Origin: Candidatus Atabeyarchaeum deiterrae
GTDB lineage: Archaea; Asgardarchaeota; Atabeyarchaeia; Atabeyarchaeales; Atabeyarchaeaceae
Assembly (NCBI GenBank): GCA_037310415.1
Contig: CP147780.1
Span: 576,001-640,000 of the forward strand
Direction: 5' to 3'
DNA length: 64,000 nt
Numbering within the stretch: the first letter of the stretch is position 1; the number at the start of each line of letters is the position of its first letter. The notes beneath the pieces were generated by a model, which was given only the letters and a program-made list of their open reading frames with translations, was not told where the DNA came from and made no database searches. A program made the position numbers and the translations under genes. Of the stretch, positions 4,436-45,424 are shown in pieces.

Positions 4436-5125
4436 ATGTCTCAGGTGTCTAACAAGGAGCCCAGCGGCGATTCGATAGAAGTCAAGTGGGGAAATCGAGA
4501 CCACCCTTTGTTCGAAGATCTAACTAACGCAACAAGAGATGCCATGGACAAACGCATATCGAGTAACTTCATTGGTGAGAGAGGGGGAAAGGGATTCAAC
4601 CAGAATGATAGGTTACATCTTGAATTCATTAAGGTGCCCAGCGGTAAGGAACTTGAGGAGTGGGAAATGCACTCACGTCACAAAGAAGTGAAGATAAAGG
4701 CATTTGTGGAGATAAGCGCTCAGATTATCAGGGTTAACTCGGTCGAGGATATTGTGATCCAAGATGGCATGTTACTCATTAAGGGTTCCGAACAACAGAA
4801 ACGCAATTCGACTTTATTTTGTTTTCCCAAAAGTGGCGGAATTGCTTACGAGTTGTATGACGTGTCCCCAAGTGAAAGAGTGGACGCGGGTCAGCTCAAG
4901 TTTACCTTCAAGCTTGATATTGACAGAATGAAAGAGACTGGGCATGGCATATTAAGTGAAGACGAAGCTAAGCCTGAAGCGATATTCCGAGTCGACCCCA
5001 TTAAGTCTGGGGAAGTTGACTCCATGGTTTTTGAAGAAAGTGTTCTGATCTATACGAAGACATCTGGGGGAGTTTTGTTGATTGACGCCTTTCCGTCAGA
5101 GACCCAGAGGGCAAACTATAGTTAG
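4436..5125 (+). CDS. Hypothetical protein, tandem paralog 1
   Basis: Aligns by eye with 5251..5964 (FIGERGGKG...HLEF, LFCFP...AYELY). Confidence 0.7.
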   Translation: MSQVSNKEPSGDSIEVKWGNRDHPLFEDLTNATRDAMDKRISSNFIGERGGKGFNQNDRLHLEFIKVPSGKELEEWEMHSRHKEVKIKAFVEISAQIIRVNSVEDIVIQDGMLLIKGSEQQKRNSTLFCFPKSGGIAYELYDVSPSERVDAGQLKFTFKLDIDRMKETGHGILSEDEAKPEAIFRVDPIKSGEVDSMVFEESVLIYTKTSGGVLLIDAFPSETQRANYS

Positions 5126-14502: not shown

Positions 14503-14562
14503 TTCAATGGTCTTTGGATCACACTACTCCATCTCACCATCAGGAAATATCGAAAACAGCTC
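14503..14562 (-). repeat. Relic of atpB 3' end, copy 2
   Basis: Translates ELFSIFPDGEME*CDPKTIE versus Atp[21 protein letters not shown]. Confidence 0.85.
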
Positions 14563-14588
14563 CACAGGGGCTTTCTCATCAATTTGCT

Positions 14589-17323: not shown

Positions 17324-17443
17324 TTACTTGTAGCAATTAGCCTTACGCGCATCACCAATAGTCTTAGGATCGCACCTCTTCATTTCACTCTCAGGAAACA
17401 CCGAAAGAAGCTCCCAAGCCAAATCAAGAGTCTGATCAATGCT
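17324..17443 (-). repeat. Relic of atpB 3' end, copy 3 (longest, 39 codons plus stop)
   Basis: [39 protein letters not shown]; 33 of 39 residues match the AtpB C-terminus, with many synonymous changes. Confidence 0.97.
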
Positions 17444-18231: not shown

Positions 18232-18315
18232 GCGATTAGCTTTCCGCGCAGCCTCAATAGTCTTCGGATCACACCGCTTCATCTCACCCCCAGGAAACAC
18301 AGATAACGACTCCCA
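18232..18315 (-). repeat. Relic of atpB 3' end, copy 4
   Basis: [28 protein letters not shown]. Confidence 0.95.
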
Positions 18316-21168: not shown

Positions 21169-24100
21169 GTGCTTCTGGAGGACATCCTCTATAACTTGCT
21201 TGTTTTCTTTGTTGGGATACCTGTTGCGGTTCTCTTTTTGTTGCTGGTTTTGTGTATTGCTTTCAAGTCTGCTCGCGGGTCCGTTTCTCACCTCGCTCGG
21301 TGGATGCTTCACGGCTTGGGGGTCTTGACACCGTACATGATCGTGGTGGTATTTGCGCTTGGTGTTGGAATTGCATGTTTCCATGTGCTGGTGTTTAGCA
21401 GTGAGTTGGTGAGGTTAACTCTCAGTTGTGCTGTTACTCTTTTGGTGTCTTACTCGATTCTCGCCTTGGCTGTGATGCATGCTAGGTGGTCGTCGAGTTT
21501 GGTAAAGTTCGTCGCGTTCTCATGTTTCTTCGTTATATTGATGGATGTTCTTGTTGGGTTTCTTGTGAGTGATGATTTGGTTCGGGTTTTGGCTTCTTGG
21601 GGTTCTTCTGTGTTTCTCGGGTGGCTTCTTCTCTATGAGAGGGATACTCTGAGGGCTTCAATGGGGTCCTTGAAACTAAGGATTAGGAAGCCTAAAGGTG
21701 ACGTGGAGCCTACATCTTTTGGCAATAGGGATCGTGAGTTGCCTGCAAATGGGAGCGGAGGAAGGAGTAGCGAGAGTGGGGGTTGTGAGGTTGGGTCAGT
21801 TGAGGTTGTCGGTATCCCTGAGAGTTACTTCTTCGGGAAGGTGGGGAATCGGAGAGACGGAGAAGCCGAGGGGTCCGGAGACGAAGATATTGCGGCTAGG
21901 TTTCGTGGATTCGCGGTGTCCCTGATTGAACATGGGTGCACCTTCGCGTTTAGCCAGGTTTACCATGGGGGTCGTGGGAGGTTCTTCATTCAGTGTAAGG
22001 AGCAAGATAGGTCTAAGCTTGCGCGGTTGGTGGAAGGTGTTGATGCATCTTTACATTCTTGGTTCCCCGATTTTGACACGAAGATACGCTACGGGGATGT
22101 TGAGTCTTCATTGGGTGGCGGGAGGCATGCTTGTGGTTGGGTTTCGAATCTGCCAGCTCCTTCGAGGAATCCTGTGAAGTATATTGCTGAGTTTTTTGTT
22201 CAGAGGAGGCTTACTGGTTCTGTGGTGGTGGTTGCTGAGGGGAGCACATCTTCTCTTTCATCTTTCGTGAAGAGGGGGCGTTATGGGAGGTTGTCGGCTA
22301 AGGCTGCGAGGCAGGAGCAGCAGAGCCCCATCGTGGGAGTGCACAACAAATCCACTATTACCAGTCGATCGAGTTGGGGTGCTGAGAAGGAGTTGAAGCA
22401 TTTAGGGACCGAGCTTGAGAGGTTGGGTTCGAAGCTGCAGGCAAAGTGTTGGATTACACTGACATGTGAGAGCTCCACGAGTGAGGAGGCTGAGATGGAT
22501 CTGGATTTGGTGCTTAGGACATTTGTGGGGGCGTTTAGTTTTGAGGAGGAGCGCCATGAGATGCGTTTTGGGAAGTTTCCCAGGAGGCAGGCTGAGGTTG
22601 TTTACCGCGCTACATCCAAGTTGAGTCCCCGGGGTAGGAGTACGGTTTTGCTGCCTTCTGATTTGGCGTTGTATTTTTGGTTGCCTGAGATGGACTCGGT
22701 TGCTCGGGTGAAGAGGAAAGGCGGTTTCTTAGCTCCTACTGGAGAGGAGGTTGAAGGTGGGGAGATTCTACTTGGTGGGGTTCTTCGCCATGGGTGTGTG
22801 TCGGATGTTGAGGCTCGCCTCACGCTTGGTGATTTGGCTCGCCACTGTTTGGTTGTGGGTTCCACTGGGAGTGGAAAGACGTGGACGACATTGTCCATAG
22901 CGATGGCTTTGCATCGGCTTGGGGTTCCTTTTTTGGTGCTTGATCCTGTGAAGAAGGAGTATAGGTGTTTGGTTGGCGCTGTTCCTGGGTTGCGTGTCTT
23001 CACGGTTGGGGATGAGGGTGTTGCGCCTTTTCGCTTCAATATTCTTGAGGTTCCCTTTGGAGTTAAGGCGCAGAAGCATGTTGACTTGGTGGAGGATGCT
23101 TTGTGTGCTTCTATTGTGATGTATCCTCCTGCGCCCTATGTTTTGCACATGGCTTTGAATCGCACTTACAGGGAACATGGTTGGGACTTGACATATGGAG
23201 AACGTGGTGGAGCTGTGTCTTTGCGTGATTTGAGGCGGAGTGTGAGGGACGTTGTTGTCGAGGAGGGTTACGAGGGTGAGCCGAGAAGCACTATTATTGC
23301 GGCTTTGAATACTCGGTTTGAGAGTTTATCTGTAGGTGGTAAGGGAGCGGCCCTGTGCAGCAGGGTATCCATGTCTCCTCAAGAGTTGATTGCTAATCCG
23401 ACTGTGGTTGAGTTTGGTGAGATGGGGGCGCAGGAGGATCGCGCCATGGTTATCCTCATGGTGCTATCGTCCATCTACGAGTATCTGCAGACACTTGGAC
23501 CAACATCTAAGCCCAGGTGCGCCATCATATTGGAGGAGGCCGGCTCACTCTTCGGCAACGTTGGCGCTAAGGGTGGAGCAGAATACGATTCTAAGGAATC
23601 TAGGAGAAAGGCGATTGAGGTTATTTCACGCATTACCGCTGAGATTCGCTCCCTTGGTGGCATGATTATTTTTGTGAATCAAAGTGCAGTTGGCTTGCCG
23701 CTTGAGGTGACCGAGAATACTTCCACGAAGATTGTGCATCAGGTTGCGGATGATGAGGATGCGGAGAAGGTTGCACGCATGTTCGGGTTAAATGAGGAGC
23801 AAAAACGTGCGCTTGCGAGTCTGGAGGTTGGTAGGCCTGTTATTAAGACGCCAAATGTGAGTCACCCGTTTCAGGTTGAGGTAACTCCTGTGACGAGTTA
23901 TGGGGTTGACCCTACCAAGTTTGTTACGGATGAGGAGTTGAGGAGGTACATGAGGGCGACGTTCTATGATGCTAACCCGCAGTATCTTAAGGCGAGTGTG
24001 ATGACGCCCACTGAGAAGACGCCAACATCGGCTCCGAGTGTGACCGTTTCCGTTGTGAATGGAGGCAGGCTAGCTGAATCAATTGTAGCTCGGGCAGACT

Positions 24101-24363
24101 TTGAGGCAAAGTTTTGTAAATCTGTGGGGAGACATCACGAGGGTGAGGGTGTGAAGGCGGTTGTGAAGCTGCTTATTGCGGAGGCTTCAAGGTATACGCG
24201 GAAACGTAAGGAGGAGGAGACGCTTGCAATGGAGATCCTCAACAGAGCTAATGACAAGTACTGCGTGAACCTGAGACCGGAAGTACGCAGGAGAGTCAAC
24301 GTGTTGGTGAAGAGGGAACTGATGGCTGACCTGCAAACGGCTGGCGGCGTGAGATCTTCCTAG
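21169..24363 (+). CDS. Membrane-anchored HerA/VirB4-like (DUF87) ATPase
   Basis: N-terminal transmembrane bundle; RHCLVVGSTGSGKT, LDPVKKEY, IILEEA, EIRSLG, NQS. Confidence 0.85.
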   Translation: MLLEDILYNLLVFFVGIPVAVLFLLLVLCIAFKSARGSVSHLARWMLHGLGVLTPYMIVVVFALGVGIACFHVLVFSSELVRLTLSCAVTLLVSYSILALAVMHARWSSSLVKFVAFSCFFVILMDVLVGFLVSDDLVRVLASWGSSVFLGWLLLYERDTLRASMGSLKLRIRKPKGDVEPTSFGNRDRELPANGSGGRSSESGGCEVGSVEVVGIPESYFFGKVGNRRDGEAEGSGDEDIAARFRGFAVSLIEHGCTFAFSQVYHGGRGRFFIQCKEQDRSKLARLVEGVDASLHSWFPDFDTKIRYGDVESSLGGGRHACGWVSNLPAPSRNPVKYIAEFFVQRRLTGSVVVVAEGSTSSLSSFVKRGRYGRLSAKAARQEQQSPIVGVHNKSTITSRSSWGAEKELKHLGTELERLGSKLQAKCWITLTCESSTSEEAEMDLDLVLRTFVGAFSFEEERHEMRFGKFPRRQAEVVYRATSKLSPRGRSTVLLPSDLALYFWLPEMDSVARVKRKGGFLAPTGEEVEGGEILLGGVLRHGCVSDVEARLTLGDLARHCLVVGSTGSGKTWTTLSIAMALHRLGVPFLVLDPVKKEYRCLVGAVPGLRVFTVGDEGVAPFRFNILEVPFGVKAQKHVDLVEDALCASIVMYPPAPYVLHMALNRTYREHGWDLTYGERGGAVSLRDLRRSVRDVVVEEGYEGEPRSTIIAALNTRFESLSVGGKGAALCSRVSMSPQELIANPTVVEFGEMGAQEDRAMVILMVLSSIYEYLQTLGPTSKPRCAIILEEAGSLFGNVGAKGGAEYDSKESRRKAIEVISRITAEIRSLGGMIIFVNQSAVGLPLEVTENTSTKIVHQVADDEDAEKVARMFGLNEEQKRALASLEVGRPVIKTPNVSHPFQVEVTPVTSYGVDPTKFVTDEELRRYMRATFYDANPQYLKASVMTPTEKTPTSAPSVTVSVVNGGRLAESIVARADFEAKFCKSVGRHHEGEGVKAVVKLLIAEASRYTRKRKEEETLAMEILNRANDKYCVNLRPEVRRRVNVLVKRELMADLQTAGGVRSS

Positions 24364-32293: not shown

Positions 32294-32342
32294 GCCTCAT
32301 TATCTTAGGATCGCACCTCTTCATCTTACCCTCAGGAAACAC
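32294..32342 (-). repeat. Relic of atpB 3' end, copy 5
   Basis: VFPEGKMKRCDPKI; near-identical at nucleotide level to 17362-17401 and 36335-36374. Confidence 0.9.
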
Positions 32343-32804
32343 CCGACGACAACTCTTAGTTCTGCCAACCATCCTTTCCTAAGACAGAATTGCATCAACT
32401 GGATGCAAGTGGTGAACTGCTTGTGTAGAGAAGAGACAAAAAGATGTGTCGAAGTCATCCATACGCTAGGCGCCGATGCTCAGCGAGACATAATGTAGGA
32501 GCATCCTTTATGATCCGTCGATCTCAACGGAAACAACCTAGCATCAGAATCAATGAATTCGCAGAAATGAGTTCTGGACAGAAAGCTATATAGAAGGTAT
32601 TCTATAACAAATAATGACCGCGACGAATGAAAACAGACCAAAAAGAGAATAAAGAAGAAACAATATAGTAGCGCGACGAGCAGCCCAGTTGGTTTAAGCT
32701 CCGAATGGGGGTTAAAATGGGGAAATCAACAAAGAATTAGTGAAAACACACATAAATTAGACAGCTTTTCTTGATGAGAAGTAAGACAGAAAGGGGGTTT
32801 CGCA

Positions 32805-36052: not shown

Positions 36053-36272
36053 GGACCGAATTGCAGAAGGCGATACCGAAAGAAATGATAGAGCCTTTAA
36101 GAGCCAAGTATGAGAGCGAATGGCAGGAAGAGTGGGAGAAGGCAGTTCTAAGGATTATGCTGTTCACTTAATTCCTGTAGAATATGCACTAAATTACGCC
36201 CTACGGGAATACAACACAGACACACCTCGCAGGAAGGCCAAAAAAGAAGGGTCAGACAGCCAAAAAAGAGGA

Positions 36273-37775
36273 CTACGCAGTTGCTGACTGGGACATGTGC
36301 TTATACCTGTTCGCTTTCCTCGCAGCGTCAAGGGTCTTAGGGTCGCACCGCTTCATCTCACCCTCAGGAAACACAGACAACAAATCCCAGGCGAGATCAA
36401 GAGTCTGATCAATGCTACGATCCACATATTCACCTTGAGTGATAAACTTCCGCTCAAACGTATCAGCAAACTTCAAATACGCCTTATCCCGATCACTCAA
36501 AGCCTCCTCACCAATCACAGCAACTAAATCCCTGAAATCCATACCCTCACTAAAAGCATAATACAACTGATCCGACACTTCCCTATGATCCTCACGCGTC
36601 AACCTTTCTCCAGATTTTGTCACACCGATCCCCTCCTTCATCAACCGACTCAAAGACGGACGCGGGTCGATCGGGGGGTATATACCCTTGTGATGGAGAG
36701 CCTCAGAAATAATGAGCTGTCCCTCAGTAATATACCCAGTAAGATCTGGAACGGGGTGTGTGATATCAGAATGCGGCATCGTCAAGACTGGCATTTGTGT
36801 TATTGTGCCTTTTCTGCCTATTATGCGTCCTGCTCTTTCGTATATGCTGGCGAGGTCTGTGTAGAGGTATCCTGGGTATCCTCTTCTTCCTGGGACTTCT
36901 TCTCTTGCTGCGCTGATTTCTCGTAGGGCTTCTGCGTAGTTTGTCATGTCTGTTAGGATGGCTAGGACGTGTAGGTTTTGTGTGTATGCTAGGTATTCTG
37001 CTGTTGTTAGGGCGCATCGGGGTGTTATGATGCGTTCTATTGCTGGGTCGTCTGCGAGGTTTAGGAATAGGACTGTGCGTTCGAGTGCGCCTGTTCGTTC
37101 GAAGTCTTTGCGGAAGTATTGTGCTTCTTCTGCTGTTATGCCCATGGCTGCGAATACTACGGCGAATTGTTCTTCTTTGCCGAGTACTTTTGCTTGGCGT
37201 GCTATTTGTGCGGCTATGCGGTTGTGTGGTAGTCCTGCTCCGCTGAAGAGTGGTAGTTTTTGTCCGCGTACGAGTGTGTTCATTCCGTCTATGGTGCTGA
37301 TTCCTGTTTGGATGAATTCTCGGGGGTATGCTCGTGCTTCGGGGTTTATTGGGCTGCCGTTTATGTCCCACATGTCTTCGGGTATGATTGGTGGTCCGTT
37401 GTCTATGGGTTCGCCTGAGCCGTCTAGGGTTCTGCCGAGTATGTCGGTTGTTACTGGGATTTTTAGTGGTTCGCCTGTGAATTGTGCTTGTGTGTTTTTG
37501 GTGTCGAGTCCTGTTGTGCCTTCGAAGACTTGGACGATGGCTTTGGTTTTGGTGATTTCTAGGACTGTGCCTCTTCTTTTTTCTCCGTCTGGTGTGGTTA
37601 TGTTGACGAGTTCGTTGTATCCTACGCCTTGGACGTTTTGGATGATGATTAGTGGTCCTGTTACGTCTGAGATGGTTTTGTAGGTTCTTTTGGCGTAGAG
37701 TGCTGCTGCGGCGATGTGGGCGGCTGTGGCTGTTTTGGTGGCGCTTTCTTGTTTTTGTTGTTTGGTTGTTGCCAT
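36273..37775 (-). CDS. atpB: A/V-type ATP synthase subunit B
   Basis: [59 protein letters not shown]. Confidence 0.98.
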
Positions 37776-38311
37776 GGGTGTGTTCTCCGTGTTGTTGTTT
37801 GAGGTGGTTGGGGTTTGGTTGATTGTGTGTGTCTTATAATTTTTGTGGTTTTGGTATCTGGTGTTTTGGGTTGGTTAGGGGAATGGGAGGGTCTGTAATC
37901 TTGGGTTTGGTGAGATTGGAGTTGAATGGTTTGGAGGGGGAATTGGACTTGAATGGTGGGGGTGTCGGGTTTTTTTGTGTGATTGTCTTTCTGTGTCTGT
38001 CGATGCTTTTTGTTGTAGGTTAGGTTGATCTTGGGTAGGAGGTGGGTAAGTATTTCTGGATGGTGAGGTTTGATGGAGGATTGGTGAGTACTTCCTTGTT
38101 GGCTGGTTTTTTCTTCTGTTTGGTTGGTGTGACGTGGAGCTCTCGATGAGTTTTGGTTAGGTGTAGTGTGTTTTGTTCTGGTTGAATTTGGAGAATGTTT
38201 ATATTTCAGTGCGTATTTTCTTTTTCGCGAATTGGCATAAGAGGAGATTTCACTTGTGCCGTTCGTTTTTCCGATTTGAAAAGGGTTGATTTTGGATCAG
38301 AGTGGGTGGCT

Positions 38312-39550
38312 TTGCCGAAGCGTAGTCAGGGGCGCAGGGTTAACGTTTGGGTTGCGTTGGCAGTTGTGTTGTTGGCTGTTAACATCGGTCAATTTGCGTT
38401 TTTTGTGTGGTTGCGGCCGAGTGTTCCGGTGGAGGATTCACCCATCCAAGTGGGGGACGTTACTGGTGTGAATAGGGCGAGTTTCCTTGGGAAGACGGTT
38501 ACGTTGGAAGGATACTTCGTTGGTGTGTTGGGGGGGAAATCGTTTCTCACTGCTGGTTTGGATGATTTTAGGCAGAATAGGATTCTTCCGTTGACGAGGT
38601 TTGTTACGATTGGGGGTGACCTTCCGCTGGATCTTTTGAATCAGACGGGTAGCCGCATCTTGCTGAAGGGGGTAGTTGGGATTGATGATTTGAATGCTAA
38701 TTTGACGCGTATTTCGTATGTGTCGCATAAGGTCGTTGAACCAAGTGCGCAGAATTATGCGCTGTGGAATTGGGATAAGCAGATTAGTATTCCTACGCCT
38801 CCGTTTCTGCAGCCGCATAAGTATGCGGTGTTGATGAGTGGGGGGTGGGATGCGGAGCACGCGTTTATGCGTTACTGGAATGATTTGAAATTCATGTTTG
38901 CTATTCTGACTGGGTATGGTTACAGTGGAAGTAATATTTTCGTTCTCTACAAGGATGGCGTTCCTGAGGATGCAGGGATATTTGTGAACGCTTCTTGCAC
39001 GTATGCGAATGTCGCTGCTGCTTTTTCGACTCTGCAGGCGAAGATGACGGATCTTGATGACTTGTTCATCTATACGACGAATCATGGGAACCCGGCGCTC
39101 TGCTTATGGAATCATGACGTACTGATTCCGTCTGACTTGGCGTCGATGTTGCAAGGTATCACGTGCCATGTCATGATCATCTTGATGCAGCAATGTTACG
39201 GGGGGGCGTTCGTACAAGATTTGAGTGGTTCGAACCGGGTGATTATGACCGCGGCGAATTCGAGTCAGTACTCATGGGCTTGCGACAAGGAAGGACCTTG
39301 GGATGAGTTTACGTACCATTTCATGGATGCGATGCGAGGGATGACCTTGATCGCAGACCCTGTGTTTGCAGACTACAATAGTGATGGGAAGGTATCCATG
39401 GTCGAGGCTTTCAATTATGCGCAGAGCATGGATAGTTGCGCTGAAATCCCCCAGTTTGATGATAACGGAGATGGCGTCAGTCATTCGGGATGGATGACCG
39501 TCGGCGGGGATGGCTATCCTGGTGGGCTCGGAGCTACGACGTTTCTGTAG
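38312..39550 (+). CDS. Membrane-anchored C13 (legumain-like, clan CD) cysteine peptidase
   Basis: N-terminal transmembrane helix, KYAVLMSGG, IYTTNHG and MQQCYGG dyad, DYNSDGKVS Ca-binding-like loop. Confidence 0.8.
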   Translation: MPKRSQGRRVNVWVALAVVLLAVNIGQFAFFVWLRPSVPVEDSPIQVGDVTGVNRASFLGKTVTLEGYFVGVLGGKSFLTAGLDDFRQNRILPLTRFVTIGGDLPLDLLNQTGSRILLKGVVGIDDLNANLTRISYVSHKVVEPSAQNYALWNWDKQISIPTPPFLQPHKYAVLMSGGWDAEHAFMRYWNDLKFMFAILTGYGYSGSNIFVLYKDGVPEDAGIFVNASCTYANVAAAFSTLQAKMTDLDDLFIYTTNHGNPALCLWNHDVLIPSDLASMLQGITCHVMIILMQQCYGGAFVQDLSGSNRVIMTAANSSQYSWACDKEGPWDEFTYHFMDAMRGMTLIADPVFADYNSDGKVSMVEAFNYAQSMDSCAEIPQFDDNGDGVSHSGWMTVGGDGYPGGLGATTFL

Positions 39551-39692: not shown

Positions 39693-42600
39693 CTAGGTGT
39701 AGAGAAGTGCGCCGACTGTTATATGGTTGACTAGTTTGTTGGTTTCGTTCTCGTTGAATGGTAGGGGTGTTATTCCCCGGAGATTGAGGAATGCAAGTGT
39801 TCTCTGTAGTTTTGTGGCGTCTTTTTTCCATGGTGTGATTATGATTAGTCCCTTTATTTGTTCCTTTTGAAGTTCTTGTCTTATTGTTCCTATTTTTGCT
39901 GTTGTGGTTGATGGGTTCATTGTGTTGTTCGTCCAGACCGTGATCACGTATTGGCTTTGGTTATTGTTTGTTGTCGTTGTTAGTAGTTCCATGTTTTGGT
40001 CTATCCACATCGTGTTGATTCCTTTGTTTCGGAGGTCTTTGTGTATTGTGGTGGTTATGTATTCTTGTAGTATGTTTCGGTTTTCGTGGTCTGTGACTTG
40101 GTAGTATATTCTTGTTGTCGCTTGGGGGTTTTGGTAGTCTGGTGCTCTGACATCCCCGATGAGGTCCTTGGCAATTAGGGGTTCTATGTGTTTGATTAGT
40201 TGTTCCTTTGTTTTGATGTTCAGTCTTCTTTGTAGTATGGTTTCATCGATTATTTCATGTTGGTGTTTGAAGGCTTGTTTCACATCATGCCATAGTTGTG
40301 TCTCTTCGGGTGTGAGTGACCGTTGGCTCAAATTAGTTCTCGTAACGTGTTGGTGTTCTGGTTGCTCCTCACGTAGTGTTGGTGGTGGTGTGTTCATGGG
40401 TGGATTGGATGGTGTGGGTGGCTGGTAAGCATTTGGGGTATGGGATGTCTGTTGCTGGTTGTAGGTGAATGTGGAGCGTGGTGAGTTGTTGGAGAGGCTT
40501 TCTGTTTCTAATTCATGTTTGTCGTTTTGAAGCTGTTTTGTTTGTTGTTTCGAGTCTTTCATTGCTTCTATTGCTTTGATGTAGGTTCTTAGTGCTTCTT
40601 TATAGTCGCCGGCTTGGTATGCTTCTTCTGCTCTGCTTTTCAGTATGCTTGTTTCTGGGTCATGTGCTGTTATTGATTGGTTGTGCTCCGCTGGATTGGG
40701 TTTCGCTGTTTCTGCGTCGTAGATTATCGGGTAGTTTACCATGTTGTTTGTTATGATGTCTCTGTTGCTCACTTTTGGTGGGTTTATTTCGCATGTTCTA
40801 ATCCTTATGGCTTTGGAGTGTTTGGGTGTGGTTATTATGGCTTCCATCTTGGGCATTGCTTTGAGGTAGTTGGTTTGTTCTTCATTTAGGTTTAACCATT
40901 TTGCTGCTTTTTCGCCATCTACTGTTGTTCTTAGGAATATCTTGGTTGCAGAGTTTGCTAGTATGTTTTGACTTATGTTTGGTCTTTGTGTTGAGATTAT
41001 TACTCCTTGTCCTGTCGCTCTGAGTAGTAGTACCATTTGCTCGGTTATGCTTGTTTCAGCTGTTGTTCTTTTGGTTAGTATTTCTGGTACTATGTCGAGG
41101 GCGTCATCGATTATGAGTATGTGTTTCAAGTTGTCTTGTATTCCCCGTTGCTGGGCGGCTGTGGCTACGTACTTGGTGATGATGCTTGATATGAGACGCA
41201 AGTCTTCTCCTGTGCCATTTGTCTTGATTTCGCTCAGATCTATTATCGCTCTTCGTTTGATCAAGTCATTGAAGTTCACGTTGCTCTCGTCTTGATTGAA
41301 TACTTCGCTCAGTGGAGTTCTTGTAAAGGAGTATAGACGGTTGAGTAGAGCTTGGATTGTTGAGTTTATTTGAGGTATCGAGGCTGAACCGCTTCTCTTT
41401 GCGTAGCTTTCGAGCCACTCATTGAATCCACTCCAGTTTCTTGTGGTTTTGTCTTCGGATGATCTTTGCCTGATCGGTTGGTCCCTTTCTTCGCCATGTT
41501 CCTGGTCTCTCTTGTCTGGAGACGTCTTTTGTGTTATGTAGGTTACTAGAACCTCATAGAAAACCCGTTCCATTTGAGCGCTTAGCTCTCTGTTCTGATC
41601 TGTGAAAAGCGTTGAGAATGTCTCTTTGAGTATCGTGAAGATCTTCTTTGCATGAACATCAGGTTTTTCCATTTCTGGGTCAAACAGGCTGATCTTCAGT
41701 GCAGCGGTTTTCGACGCTGGCTTAAGATAGACAACGTTGTCCACTGATTTCACGAGGGGTTTGTACTCGCCTTTCATCTCTATTAATGTCCACGCGATAT
41801 CATAGCGCGACAGGTTCTCAAGTATTTTCATGATCAGCCTTGTCTTGCCGAATCCTGTTTCACCAAAAATGACAGTATGTAGCTTGAGATCCTGCAGTTT
41901 GATTCTCATTGGGCAAATCTCGTTTTCACCGTCGAGTACTGTGCCGATTATTAACTCCCCGTCTTCAAGCTCCTCCATTGAGGGAACATGAAAGGCTGGT
42001 ATTGATGTCTCGGGGATGCCTGCAACATGTTGCTCTGGTAGAAGGATCAGTGTTGCTGCTACCCTTGAAGAAGCATTCAACGTTGTGAACCCTATCGTCT
42101 GCCTGAATAGAAGATTAGTTAGATGTTTCGCAACATGTTTTCCTTTTAGCTTTTCGCATTCAATCCCAACTCCAGGGTTTGAGTAAATTGCCTCAATACA
42201 AGCGTCACCTTTCTCTTGCATCGACTTTGTTTCCTCAGGGGTCTCGCCTCGGTAGGCAACATATGCCGAGATCTTCCAGTAACCAGAGAGCTGTGCATTT
42301 CTATCTTCGCTAGCCTCTCTTTTCTTCTCATCGAGTTCAAGTAGTAACCTCATGTTGGGTTCCGTTTTCGCTTTTTCAATGAGTCTTGATTCTGATGCTA
42401 TTGATGGGGGTTTTGTTGCCTCCAAGTGAATTGTCATTGAAGCGGTGAAGCGTTCTCTTGTAAATGTTGAGATGAATTGCTCAACTTGGTTCTTTGGCAT
42501 CCCAGTAGTTGAGTCTGGGTTGGCCCTCCCCTTCAGGGCACTTACGGCAACATAACGCACATCTGTCCCTTGAATCCTTTCTATCTTGAGGAGCCTCCCG

Positions 42601-43490
42601 CGCGCATCGCCGGTGAAAGTCGAATCCCGACCGAGAATTGATCTGTAAACGCTCCACAGTTGGTATCCTTGTAGAAATTCGATCTTGGTGTTGAATCTGC
42701 TTTGCATTATGCTTCTAAGCTTTTGAGCTTTCTCTTCGGCTACTTCTGCAGCATGTTCTGCATCTGGACTAATTGCCAATGTGAAGAATTCCACTGATGA
42801 TAGACCTTTCTCTACTGTAAACTCGACACTGAAATCTGGAACATTATTCCATAAGGAAGTCATATGAGAAAAGTTGACTATCTCCCCAACCGTTGTCTCA
42901 AAATCCCTTTTTTCGTGTGTATGAATCATTAGTCCTTTACCTAGCGGCTCCAATGAATTTGTTGAGCGACTCGCCAACTTGAGAATGCACAAGGCGAAAT
43001 TCTTGTCCTTGCCCTTGAGCACAAGAGTCTTGCCACGGTAGACTGCCAAATCTGTGGCAGGATCCACGCACTCACCGTCTATTTTGATGTTTCTCCGAGA
43101 AAAAGACATGGCGACTGACCCAAGCAATGCGAGGAATCCGGAAACCAGAAGGAACTGGTTAAACAATACTACTAATGTACCAGAAGGCGAGGGCAATCCT
43201 GTTAATGAATTGCTCAGGCAGGCGGAAACAATACTAACAACTACTATACTTAGGGAGACTATTGCTGCACACTGCGACTTCTTCTTGATGTATTTCTCTT
43301 CAAATAGTCGGTAGGCGATGTATGACATGACCACGATTGGCGATGTCGTTAGAGTTATTCCCAGTGTCTGTTGGTATAGGGACGCTTTTTCCAAACCAAG
43401 GAGTTGCGTGAGCAATCTCGCGATAAGCAAAATGAATACATTGACCGCGAGCAAAGAGATTACTGCGTTTCTGCCGTTGATGATAAGCAC
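39693..43490 (-). CDS. Membrane-anchored HerA/VirB4-like (DUF87) ATPase with extended C-terminus
   Basis: About 4 N-terminal transmembrane helices; HTVIFGETGFGKT, ILIIDDA, STQRP; TPR-like segment AEEAYQAGDYKEA. Confidence 0.85.
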   Translation of the reverse strand: MLIINGRNAVISLLAVNVFILLIARLLTQLLGLEKASLYQQTLGITLTTSPIVVMSYIAYRLFEEKYIKKKSQCAAIVSLSIVVVSIVSACLSNSLTGLPSPSGTLVVLFNQFLLVSGFLALLGSVAMSFSRRNIKIDGECVDPATDLAVYRGKTLVLKGKDKNFALCILKLASRSTNSLEPLGKGLMIHTHEKRDFETTVGEIVNFSHMTSLWNNVPDFSVEFTVEKGLSSVEFFTLAISPDAEHAAEVAEEKAQKLRSIMQSRFNTKIEFLQGYQLWSVYRSILGRDSTFTGDARGRLLKIERIQGTDVRYVAVSALKGRANPDSTTGMPKNQVEQFISTFTRERFTASMTIHLEATKPPSIASESRLIEKAKTEPNMRLLLELDEKKREASEDRNAQLSGYWKISAYVAYRGETPEETKSMQEKGDACIEAIYSNPGVGIECEKLKGKHVAKHLTNLLFRQTIGFTTLNASSRVAATLILLPEQHVAGIPETSIPAFHVPSMEELEDGELIIGTVLDGENEICPMRIKLQDLKLHTVIFGETGFGKTRLIMKILENLSRYDIAWTLIEMKGEYKPLVKSVDNVVYLKPASKTAALKISLFDPEMEKPDVHAKKIFTILKETFSTLFTDQNRELSAQMERVFYEVLVTYITQKTSPDKRDQEHGEERDQPIRQRSSEDKTTRNWSGFNEWLESYAKRSGSASIPQINSTIQALLNRLYSFTRTPLSEVFNQDESNVNFNDLIKRRAIIDLSEIKTNGTGEDLRLISSIITKYVATAAQQRGIQDNLKHILIIDDALDIVPEILTKRTTAETSITEQMVLLLRATGQGVIISTQRPNISQNILANSATKIFLRTTVDGEKAAKWLNLNEEQTNYLKAMPKMEAIITTPKHSKAIRIRTCEINPPKVSNRDIITNNMVNYPIIYDAETAKPNPAEHNQSITAHDPETSILKSRAEEAYQAGDYKEALRTYIKAIEAMKDSKQQTKQLQNDKHELETESLSNNSPRSTFTYNQQQTSHTPNAYQPPTPSNPPMNTPPPTLREEQPEHQHVTRTNLSQRSLTPEETQLWHDVKQAFKHQHEIIDETILQRRLNIKTKEQLIKHIEPLIAKDLIGDVRAPDYQNPQATTRIYYQVTDHENRNILQEYITTTIHKDLRNKGINTMWIDQNMELLTTTTNNNQSQYVITVWTNNTMNPSTTTAKIGTIRQELQKEQIKGLIIITPWKKDATKLQRTLAFLNLRGITPLPFNENETNKLVNHITVGALLYT

Positions 43491-43627: not shown

Positions 43628-45424
43628 CTATGCCGTGGCAGCTATGCTTGATGTTGACTTGCTTAGTAGAGATTCAAACTGCTGATCCATTCTTTTCTCA
43701 ACTTCGTCAAAGACTTCTTTGATTTTTGATTGCTCAACTATTTTGAGTCGAGCTATTTCGTCGTAGGTGCCTAGCTTAAGCACCTCACGAATTGGTGCAC
43801 CTAGATTAACCGCCCTTTTCATGTTCTCGTAGAATTTGATTACTGCTCTCAGTAACCTGTAGGACTTTGTTGGATCACAATATGAGTCGACTGGATGCAG
43901 GGCTGATTGCATCAAGTAGTCTTCTCTGATCATTCGGGCCGCCTCCAAGATCACCTTCTCAGTTTCAGGCAACGCGTCAGGCCCCACAAGTTGAACGATT
44001 TCCTTGAGTTCCTCTTCCCTTTGCAGCAAGGTCATTGCCGTCTCCCTTATTGAAGCCCATTCTGGGCTGACTTTGGCTTCGAACCATTCTCTTAGGTTAT
44101 CCTGGTATAGGCTGTAGCTTTGAAGCCAGTTTATCGCAGGGAAGTGCCTTCGGGAGGCTAGGTCCTTGTCAAGCGCCCAGAAGACCTTAACAATCCTGAG
44201 TGTGTTCACCGTGACTGGTTCTGAGAAGTCCCCGCCTGGTGGACTAACTGCTCCAGTTACACTAATGCTACCAATGCGCTCCTTGGGCCCTAGAATCACA
44301 ACTCTTCCAGCCCTCTCATAGAACTCGGACAGCCTGCTCGCGAGGTATGCGGGATACCCCTCTTCGCCTGGCATCTCTTCAAGACGACCTGATATCTCCC
44401 TTAGAGCTTCGGCCCACCTTGAAGTGCTGTCTGCCATTAGAGCAACATCGTAACCCATGTCACGGAAGTACTCAGCCATGGTGATTCCAGTGTAAATGCT
44501 TGCCTCTCTCGCTGCCACCGGCATGTTACTGGTATTTGCTATCAGCACCGTGCGCGCCATCAGAGGCTCGCCAGATCTCGGGTCAGTCAGCTTGGGGAAC
44601 TCCTCTAGAACTTCTGTCATTTCGTTTCCCCTTTCCCCGCACCCGACATAGATTATTATCTTAGCATCGGCCCATTTGGCCAATTGGTGCAGCATCACGG
44701 TTTTTCCTGTCCCGAATCCTCCAGGAATGGCCGCAGTTCCACCTTTTGCAGTCGGGAAGAATGTATCTATGATCCTTTGACCAGTAACCAATGGTGTATC
44801 GGTACTCAACTTAAACTTAATGGGACGTGCTCTTCGAACAGGCCAAGTTTGAAGGAGCGCTATTTTATTCTCTCCACCGTCAGCACTCTTAACAGTGGCT
44901 ATTGTGTCAACCAGTTTGTATTTTCCCTCATCCGCAACTTCAACTAACTCGCCTGACATACCGTAGGGAACAATTATCCTGTGTGTTACAAGTTTCGTTT
45001 CTGGAATTTCACCAACTGGTGTTCCAGGCTCCACCTTTTCACTTTTTCTCAACAATGGAATGAAATGCCACTCAGTGTCGCGGGGCAGTGCCTCCGTTAC
45101 GACGCCTCTCCTTATGAAGTCGCCAACAGCTTCCTTGATTCTAGGCAGCGGCCGCTGAATGCCATCAAAGATCTGACCGATCAGACCCGGACCCAATTCA
45201 ACTGACAATGGTCGCCCTGTAGCGATAACAGCTTCCCCCGGTTTGATCCCAGCGGTCTCCTCGTAAACCTGAATGGTGCAAACATCTCCAGATACCTTGT
45301 TCACTTCTCCGATTAATCCTTCGTCCCCTACTCTGCAGACCTCGTACATCTTAACACCGCGGAGACCTTCGGCATCAACGACTGGTCCTGAGACCCTGAT
45401 TATTTTACCATTGATTTCTGACAC
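43628..45424 (-). CDS. atpA: A/V-type ATP synthase subunit A
   Basis: [40 protein letters not shown]. Confidence 0.98.

Follow-up and report, generated by a model that had tools for sequence, protein, structure and literature searches.

Switch in strand composition inside the atpB gene of Candidatus Atabeyarchaeum deiterrae

The atpB switch and its two arms

The stretch of DNA analysed here (the window; 64,000 nucleotides, nt) corresponds to positions 576001 to 640000 of the complete genome of Candidatus Atabeyarchaeum deiterrae, which has 2,756,679 base pairs (bp; 2.76 Mb). It contains atpB, the gene encoding the B subunit of the A-type ATP synthase, and inside this gene the plus strand changes from A/C-rich to G/T-rich between two adjacent codons. 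Positions are those of the window unless the genome is named, and an open reading frame is abbreviated as ORF. The locus contains the following features:

36273-37775, minus strand: atpB, 500 amino acids (aa), which harbours the switch (Pfam ATP-synt_ab, E=2e-76, plus N- and C-terminal domains)
36783-36788, no strand: switch point between codon 330 (GTC) and codon 331 (TTG), with the boundary at 36785/36786, placed by maximum-likelihood change point and codon listing
36786-37775, no strand: saturated arm, atpB codons 1-330, where the plus strand is without A or C at every silent site
36170-36785, no strand: short opposite arm, atpB codons 331-500 and about 100 nt beyond the stop codon, with a plus strand of 59% A/C
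36290-36420, minus strand: last ~45 codons of atpB, a segment copied downstream (blastn and tblastn copies), whose upstream edge at ~36420 is the insertion boundary
37776-38190, no strand: spacer 5' of atpB (415 nt)
38195-39550, plus strand: C13-family peptidase gene (Pfam PF01650), inserted into a formerly unbroken island
39693-43490, minus strand: HerA-like ATPase gene, 1265 aa (DUF87/HerA matches), whose 3' half (39693-41500) lies within a G/T-rich plus-strand stretch
43628-45424, minus strand: atpA
36946-37683, plus strand: shadow ORF of 245 codons, antisense to atpB

Codons 1-330 of atpB are saturated: all 323 third positions with a silent alternative are A or C, and the only third-position G or T are those of six ATG codons and one TGG codon. 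Against the genome mean of 0.52, the binomial probability of this saturation is 9e-81. The 25 leucine codons of this part are all CTA or CTC, and therefore silent first-position sites have been converted too. Codons 331-500 show G or T at 132 of 170 third positions (78%), with leucine mostly encoded by TTG. On the plus strand, G+T makes up 41% of the short opposite arm, 71% of the saturated arm and 82% of the spacer. GC skew and AT skew of this strand are -0.40 and +0.14 at 36.3-36.6 kb, and from +0.23 to +0.76 and from -0.48 to -0.65, respectively, at 36.75-38.2 kb. In the islands, as the G/T-rich stretches are called here, plus-strand A (0.14-0.15) and C (0.15-0.16) are both depleted whatever the gene orientation. 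The protein is also affected: codon positions 1 and 2 of AtpB residues 1-50 have a keto skew of -0.34, versus about 0 in other lineages, and the variable parts of AtpB have drifted toward amino acids with A/C-rich codons. A preliminary description of this DNA had reported that third positions pass from A/C to G/T within atpB, and this is borne out as a codon-sharp change at 330/331. Its hand counts are exact (17/60 G+T at 36481-36540 and 51/60 at 37741-37800), the G/T-rich plus strand that it followed to the right reaches ~38.9 kb and recurs at 39.6-41.5 kb, and atpA is, as it stated, without comparable bias.

The bias tracks the DNA strand and not the gene, because the G/T-rich plus strand extends over the spacer, one gene on the plus strand and half of another on the minus strand. 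The C13 peptidase gene is G/T-rich on its own coding strand (about 75% of third positions), and the HerA-like gene, read from the opposite strand, shows about 80-85% A/C at third positions in its 3' half and about 50-55% in its 5' half. The bias of this gene has gone by codon ~650 and the island fades to normal by ~41.5 kb. The spacer has kept a TATA-like box ~60-70 nt upstream of the atpB start. The shadow ORF, which has 98% G/T at third positions and no Pfam or PADLOC family, is a composition artefact: it is free of stop codons because these need A, and the plus strand has almost none there.

The switch is not an assembly join, the outcome that the preliminary description had named as fatal to its proposal. 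Two contigs that were assembled independently and automatically, from separate sequencing runs, match the genome with 100% identity over a 2.8-kb stretch around the switch; they are the only ones encoding an identical AtpB protein, and their DNA is identical too. The atpB switch is also found in at least nine other genomes or contigs.

The remaining observations at this locus concern the spacer and the two inserted or flanking genes. The spacer contains a 16-nt direct repeat (37915-37930 and 37942-37957; one mismatch, 27-nt spacing), which is absent from every other locus examined. The C13 peptidase has 68 homologs, mostly in Asgard genomes. The membrane HerA-like ATPase is found between atpA and atpB in each of the family's three genomes (39693-43490 in the window, 606735-610499 in genome G001, and contig C254 of genome G002) and is fast-evolving, with 52-58% identity; its best matches in the defence library are the mad8 and HerA models. 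A distant paralog (20% identity) is located at 21169-24363, within the cassette stack.

Distribution of the switches and their insertion sites

The relatives compared include G001 and G002, two other genomes of the same family (Atabeyarchaeia), and L168, a metagenome contig of a third related lineage; L169, L170 and G028, a sister clade of Atabeyarchaeia in the tree of the 5' part of AtpB; and G004, G015 and the metagenome contig L222, which belong to another Asgard family (f3). AtpB is 87-89% identical to its same-family orthologs. The orthologs flip at the same codon, as the preliminary description had proposed checking: within ~3 codons in G001 and G002, and within ~10 in L168, L169 and L170, where the last two show the switch at residues ~336-341. 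G028 has a weaker switch near residue 390, and in family f3 the switch is 30-45 codons upstream. Among 160 atpB loci of the genome and metagenome collections, which took in Odin-, Thor-, Heimdall-, Jord- and Bathyarchaeia, Thermoplasmata, Methanobacteria and Thermococci, the switch was found in none except L168, L169, L170 and L222.

The pattern is actively maintained. Between the saturated arm and its G001 and G002 counterparts, 33% of 4-fold sites show A<->C differences, and G or T occurs in either sequence at 0-4 of ~135 such sites; against family f3 the identity at 4-fold sites is 49%, equal to random for a two-letter alphabet. The pressure acts now and separately in each lineage, and is not the remnant of a single old event, because the silent sites have undergone repeated turnover with G and T still excluded.

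Switches as strong as this are rare across the genome. In 500-nt windows, only four regions exceed an absolute keto skew of 0.4, three of them within this window, so that such flips are not common throughout the genome, which the preliminary description had named as a refutation. Wobble-saturated runs are confined to four genes of the genome, atpB and the first three listed below; weaker islands are present at the second HerA-like gene (21169-24363) and at the 3' end of cas1.

Genome 129145-131355, minus strand: EF-2 paralog, with a switch at 129573 (codon 594)
Genome 2663492-2664691, minus strand: RuBisCO-like gene, with a switch at 2663674 (codon 339)
Genome 1023413-1023853, plus strand: rps12, with a switch at 1023744
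Genome 2640713-2652936 and 2663269-2663455: leftover copies and repeated segment of the RuBisCO-like gene

The EF-2 switch is kept in G001 and G002, and those of the RuBisCO-like gene and rps12 are kept in G001. The RuBisCO-like ortholog of G001 (2712473-2713685; L248) matches in two pieces, in different frames, which meet near residue 300, a possible further intron or frameshift. A 185-nt segment, 77% identical between its two copies (genome 1024116-1024300 and 939304-939488), sits at the 3' end or stop-codon boundary of two minus-strand genes with G/T-rich plus-strand islands: an HTH-domain (helix-turn-helix) gene of 918 aa adjoining rps12, and an ORF of 575 aa. Some contig ends of draft genomes fall near switch points. 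The EF-2 contig of G002 (C266) ends 18 codons past the switch, and the rps12 contigs C140 of G002, C464 of G028 and C276 of G015 end 250-640 nt past the gene; such junctions may vary between strains of the populations sampled.

Every island starts abruptly and fades after 1.5-3 kb. The G001 island declines monotonically over 2.7 kb, and that of the analysed genome shows a plateau and then fades over ~450 nt, broken by the inserted gene. Sharp jumps from A/C to G/T outnumber the reverse by 10 to 1 in this genome and by 27 to 10 in the f3 samples. The pattern is symmetric, since on either strand read 5' to 3' an A/C-rich part yields to a G/T-rich one. The sign of the switch is, as the preliminary description held, that expected where DNA synthesis or strand displacement begins and moves outward.

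The three genomes of the family differ in what has been inserted into the atpB island. In G001, atpA, the HerA-like gene and atpB are contiguous and share a single unbroken island of 2.7 kb. In G002, three ORFs of normal composition are inserted between the HerA-like gene and atpB, splitting the island. The analysed genome has at that place the C13 gene, partly converted and absent from there in G001 and G002; its insertion therefore accounts for the dip at 38.9-39.6 kb, which makes the G/T-rich DNA look like a second block.

Leftover copies of gene 3' ends lie downstream of three of the switch genes. Four copies of the atpB 3' end were found by blastn and tblastn (14504-14568, 17337-17443, 18236-18315 and 32303-32355), and their homology stops near 36385-36420. 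The EF-2 paralog has one copy of its last ~30-41 codons (genome 126470-126597), 2.5 kb downstream, and the RuBisCO-like gene has nine copies of its last exon, 10-23 kb downstream. These repeats mark serial insertion, with the RuBisCO-like gene as the second and the EF-2 paralog as the third such site. In a control of 300 random long ORFs, the 3' end had a non-self match in 35 and two or more in eight; the chance of all three unrelated loci having one is therefore ~0.002. The start of the repeated segment is 220-365 nt downstream of the switch at each of these three loci. The preliminary description saw in the atpB switch a possible footprint of cassette capture. This gains support: the three saturated loci just named all carry 3'-end copies. 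As a general cause it fails, since the f3 switch lies among housekeeping genes without cassettes in the 12-kb contig.

In G004, both arms of the atpB switch are several kb long and made of housekeeping genes, such as those for a tRNA-splicing endonuclease, an eIF-2B-family protein, a phosphoribosyltransferase, Endo_dU and an RNase III-like protein. Multi-gene strand domains are a general trait of the f3 lineage, as seen from the spread of skew in G004, the share of skewed windows and the correlations between neighbours. The standard deviation of keto skew is 0.069 in G004 (~230 kb sampled) versus 0.037 in the analysed genome, 8% of the 500-nt windows of the G004 sample exceed a keto skew of 0.12 versus 0.55% in the analysed genome, and third-position A/C of neighbouring f3 genes correlates at +0.59 on the same strand and at -0.49 on opposite strands. 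The Endonuclease dU gene of G004 (PF01949; L050 4674-5330, contig C55) is directly downstream of atpB, inside the skewed arm; the family acts on deaminated cytosine in DNA, and its placement beside atpB may be coincidence. Outside these lineages, a metagenome-assembled Methanobacteriota contig (L121) shows third-position A/C as low as 0.12 in atpB, with no internal switch and a keto-skew spread of 0.067 at the locus, and strong strand domains may thus occur outside Asgard archaea as well.

Possible causes of the islands

Tentatively, and with a confidence that stops a little short of even, we favour recurrent strand exposure or re-synthesis that is anchored at the site and starts at the switch, as distinct from a canonical origin. 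A locally anchored and long-lived mutational process would act on one DNA strand at a time: from a fixed point in atpB, the strand running 5' to 3' away from it (the plus strand rightward, the minus strand leftward) would lose A and C wherever selection allows, with C->T and A->G as net changes. The affected strand would repeatedly become single-stranded, or be re-synthesised, through an event with its start at the switch and its end 1.5-3 kb farther on. Candidate events include abortive or recombination-dependent DNA synthesis and strand displacement from a nick, a D-loop or an R-loop, after which deaminated bases or G:T mispairs would become fixed. Loss of both C and A is what deamination of cytosine and adenine leaves behind, or else G:T mispairing in a new strand. 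The geometries that would fit are the lagging-strand templates of two diverging forks, the strand displaced at a nick, the nascent strand behind a D-loop that migrates during recombination-dependent synthesis, and the non-template strands of two divergent R-loops. In Atabeyarchaeia, the same recurrent event plausibly also predisposes the 3' ends of atpB, EF-2 and the RuBisCO-like gene to insertion. A more specific version appears rather unlikely: that some Asgard lineages possess dedicated strand displacement or synthesis anchored at fixed points in conserved genes, which would drive local one-strand hypermutation to saturation and supply the single-stranded DNA substrate for cassette capture without a recombinase at those three 3' ends. 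Such a process could consist of starts of recombination-dependent replication or of a chromosomal DNA-transfer origin.

Several results weigh against strand exposure or re-synthesis from the switch. No motif is common to the four switch points, where words of 7-10 nt (1-2 mismatches allowed) are no more frequent than at random sites, no hairpin is present at any of them (both strands of the four loci compared with shuffles, all z-scores positive), and conservation is lacking at silent sites next to the atpB switch, which gives no indication of an embedded DNA element. The switch is 220-365 nt away from the insertion boundary and not on it, and around the f3 switch of G004 there are no cassettes within the 12-kb contig. 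The DNA inserted in G002 has normal composition despite lying inside the island, and therefore the process is either slow or does not cross the insert. To our knowledge, a saturation of 100% is beyond any known replication-linked asymmetry, that of vertebrate mitochondrial DNA included, and the process may therefore need an enzyme or selection.

Some candidates for the starting event were rejected. GGCC is not enriched at the switches: it is absent from those of atpB and rps12, lies within 30 nt of those of EF-2 and the RuBisCO-like gene (random expectation 0.075), and is near three of 24 jumps in G004 (random expectation 0.10). A double-strand break with 5' to 3' resection at the switch predicts the opposite polarity and was rejected by this reasoning. 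An Rfam search gave only a chance-level snoRNA match (E=0.86), and the over-long matches at two metagenome loci, considered as a sign of an intein or homing site in atpB, are the adjacent atpA.

Transcription could leave a similar footprint if two divergent unannotated transcripts started at the switch and their displaced non-template strands were deaminated, the limits of the island being those of the transcripts. The non-template strand of mammalian promoters is G/T-rich downstream of the start site, which is the polarity of an origin as well; moreover, G-runs lie at or near some switches, such as that of rps12, TATA-like words lie 50-110 nt left of the atpB switch, and all four loci are genes expected to be highly expressed. 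However, antisense transcription would have to exceed sense transcription over 1 kb in atpB, 1.8 kb in EF-2 and 1 kb in the RuBisCO-like gene, and other genes expected to be highly expressed are unbiased, with third-position A/C of 0.54-0.60 in the L3-L2 ribosomal cluster and 0.56-0.58 in two thermosome genes. The genome-wide mean of 0.50-0.52 shows no general transcription asymmetry, third-position A/C of opposite-strand neighbours in f3 is anticorrelated, and no silent-site conservation points to an embedded promoter. The asymmetry typical of transcription is a G/T-rich coding strand, and what is found in atpB codons 1-330, EF-2 and the RuBisCO-like gene is a coding strand saturated with A/C. 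This explanation is therefore judged unlikely, and one step less probable still is selection that keeps a strand free of A and C for some function, either as a non-folding mRNA or single strand, or as a duplex without palindromes such as restriction or recombinase sites. The saturation of 100%, the scarcity of 4-nt palindromes (26 per kb in the island versus 47 per kb in the genome) and the occurrence of the pattern in essential genes adjoining defence-cassette stacks would suit selection. The island nevertheless covers the spacer and genes on both strands, where effects on mRNA are opposite, the bias fades gradually inside genes, and amino-acid usage is shifted; insertions of different age differ in bias, a better fit to a clock-like mutational drive than to function.

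The preliminary description had offered either repeated starts of DNA synthesis (a cryptic origin or recombination-dependent replication) or a mosaic atpB; a mosaic is not supported, nor is a canonical origin. Amino/keto disparity is the classic archaeal origin signal of Z-curve work and the polarity of the skew is correct, but an Orc1/Cdc6-dependent chromosomal origin inside atpB is very improbable: the switch is in coding sequence with a normal local GC content of 0.49, without an AT-rich unwinding element and without flanking inverted repeats of the ORB (origin recognition box) type, and the window shows no significant match to the inverted-repeat word beside orc1. From the switch it is 27 kb to the nearest Cdc6_C match, at 640.4 kb of the genome, and 58 kb to the next, at 671 kb; replication skew is just 1-3% genome-wide (100-kb bins), so the bias is not replichore-wide; the atpB bias is gone within 5 kb; and such points number at least four in this genome and are numerous in f3 genomes. 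The idea that atpB joins, at codon 330, parts from different genomes or mobile elements draws on the codon-sharp junction and on its nearness to a recombination hot spot where leftover copies of the 3' end occur, and it is barely credible. Protein trees of residues 30-330 and 331-495 each give a monophyletic Atabeyarchaeia clade (they disagree on the deeper placement, though the 3' part is short), the two parts have similar amino-acid identities, and the same switch codon occurs in genera with randomised silent sites, the pattern being maintained independently in diverged lineages. The bias also continues across neighbouring genes and spacers, and the leftover copies start ~120 codons downstream of the switch. 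Least probable of all is ordinary codon usage of highly expressed genes. A/C-ending codons are perfect Watson-Crick partners of archaeal GNN and UNN anticodons, and atpB, EF-2 and rps12 are expected to be highly expressed. Codon optimisation is refuted by the spacer and the opposite-strand genes, which are also affected; in addition, the bias reverses inside atpB, ribosomal-protein and thermosome genes are unbiased, and third-position A/C is highest in an assorted set of genes that includes Cas1, arginase and a methyltransferase.

Just past the window end there is a non-coding stretch of 870 nt with lower GC content (L260 3800-4670; genome ~642.3-643.2 kb), ~0.7 kb upstream of the best orc1/cdc6 gene and beyond a small intervening ORF. 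It contains 15-nt inverted repeats (4542-4556 and 4658-4672), an 18-nt direct repeat and a local change of sign in GC skew, and is a candidate canonical origin.

Comparison with known systems

Strand asymmetry is the main clue that sequence alone offers to chromosome copying and repair, and the islands described here have their anchor points at single codons within essential genes of archaea more closely related to eukaryotes than any other prokaryotes. If the islands are mutational, they would mark a recurrent DNA transaction at exact coordinates and may explain the capture of cassettes that lack a recombinase of their own. They also have practical consequences: stop-free shadow ORFs mislead gene callers, and convergent composition and amino-acid drift may bias phylogenies of atpB and EF-2. 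A full-text literature search found no description of such islands, and the genome papers on Atabeyarchaeia mention cumulative GC skew and nothing further on strand asymmetry.

The heavy/light strand asymmetry of vertebrate mitochondrial DNA, which stems from deamination of the strand displaced in replication, is the closest analogue. There too, one strand loses C and A (C->T, A->G) independently of gene identity, and third positions of genes read from the other strand are nearly pure A/C; the islands described here differ in being chromosomal, 1.5-5 kb long, bidirectional from an intragenic point and more complete, with 0% G and T at free sites. In polarity, the nearest likeness is with the skew jumps at bacterial and archaeal origins (GC skew and Z-curve amino/keto disparity), which have the same sign, A/C-rich to G/T-rich on the plus strand. 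Here the extent is ~1000 times shorter, the amplitude is 10-30 times that of the genome's own replichore skew, and the defining features of an origin are absent. The skew N-domains of mammals also show sharp upward jumps and gradual returns, most clearly matched by the f3 contigs, but span megabases and not kilobases; the present islands are in an archaeon and their amplitude reaches saturation. Kataegis at break-induced replication shows same-strand transition runs 5' to 3' from a start point, and the polarity found here would fit damage to a nascent strand and not to resected ends; kataegis consists of single somatic events at C only, whereas the islands are an evolutionary equilibrium of C and A held over genus divergence. 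The islands differ from these known analogues in being kilobase-local, saturated, anchored inside conserved genes and adjoining insertion hot spots.

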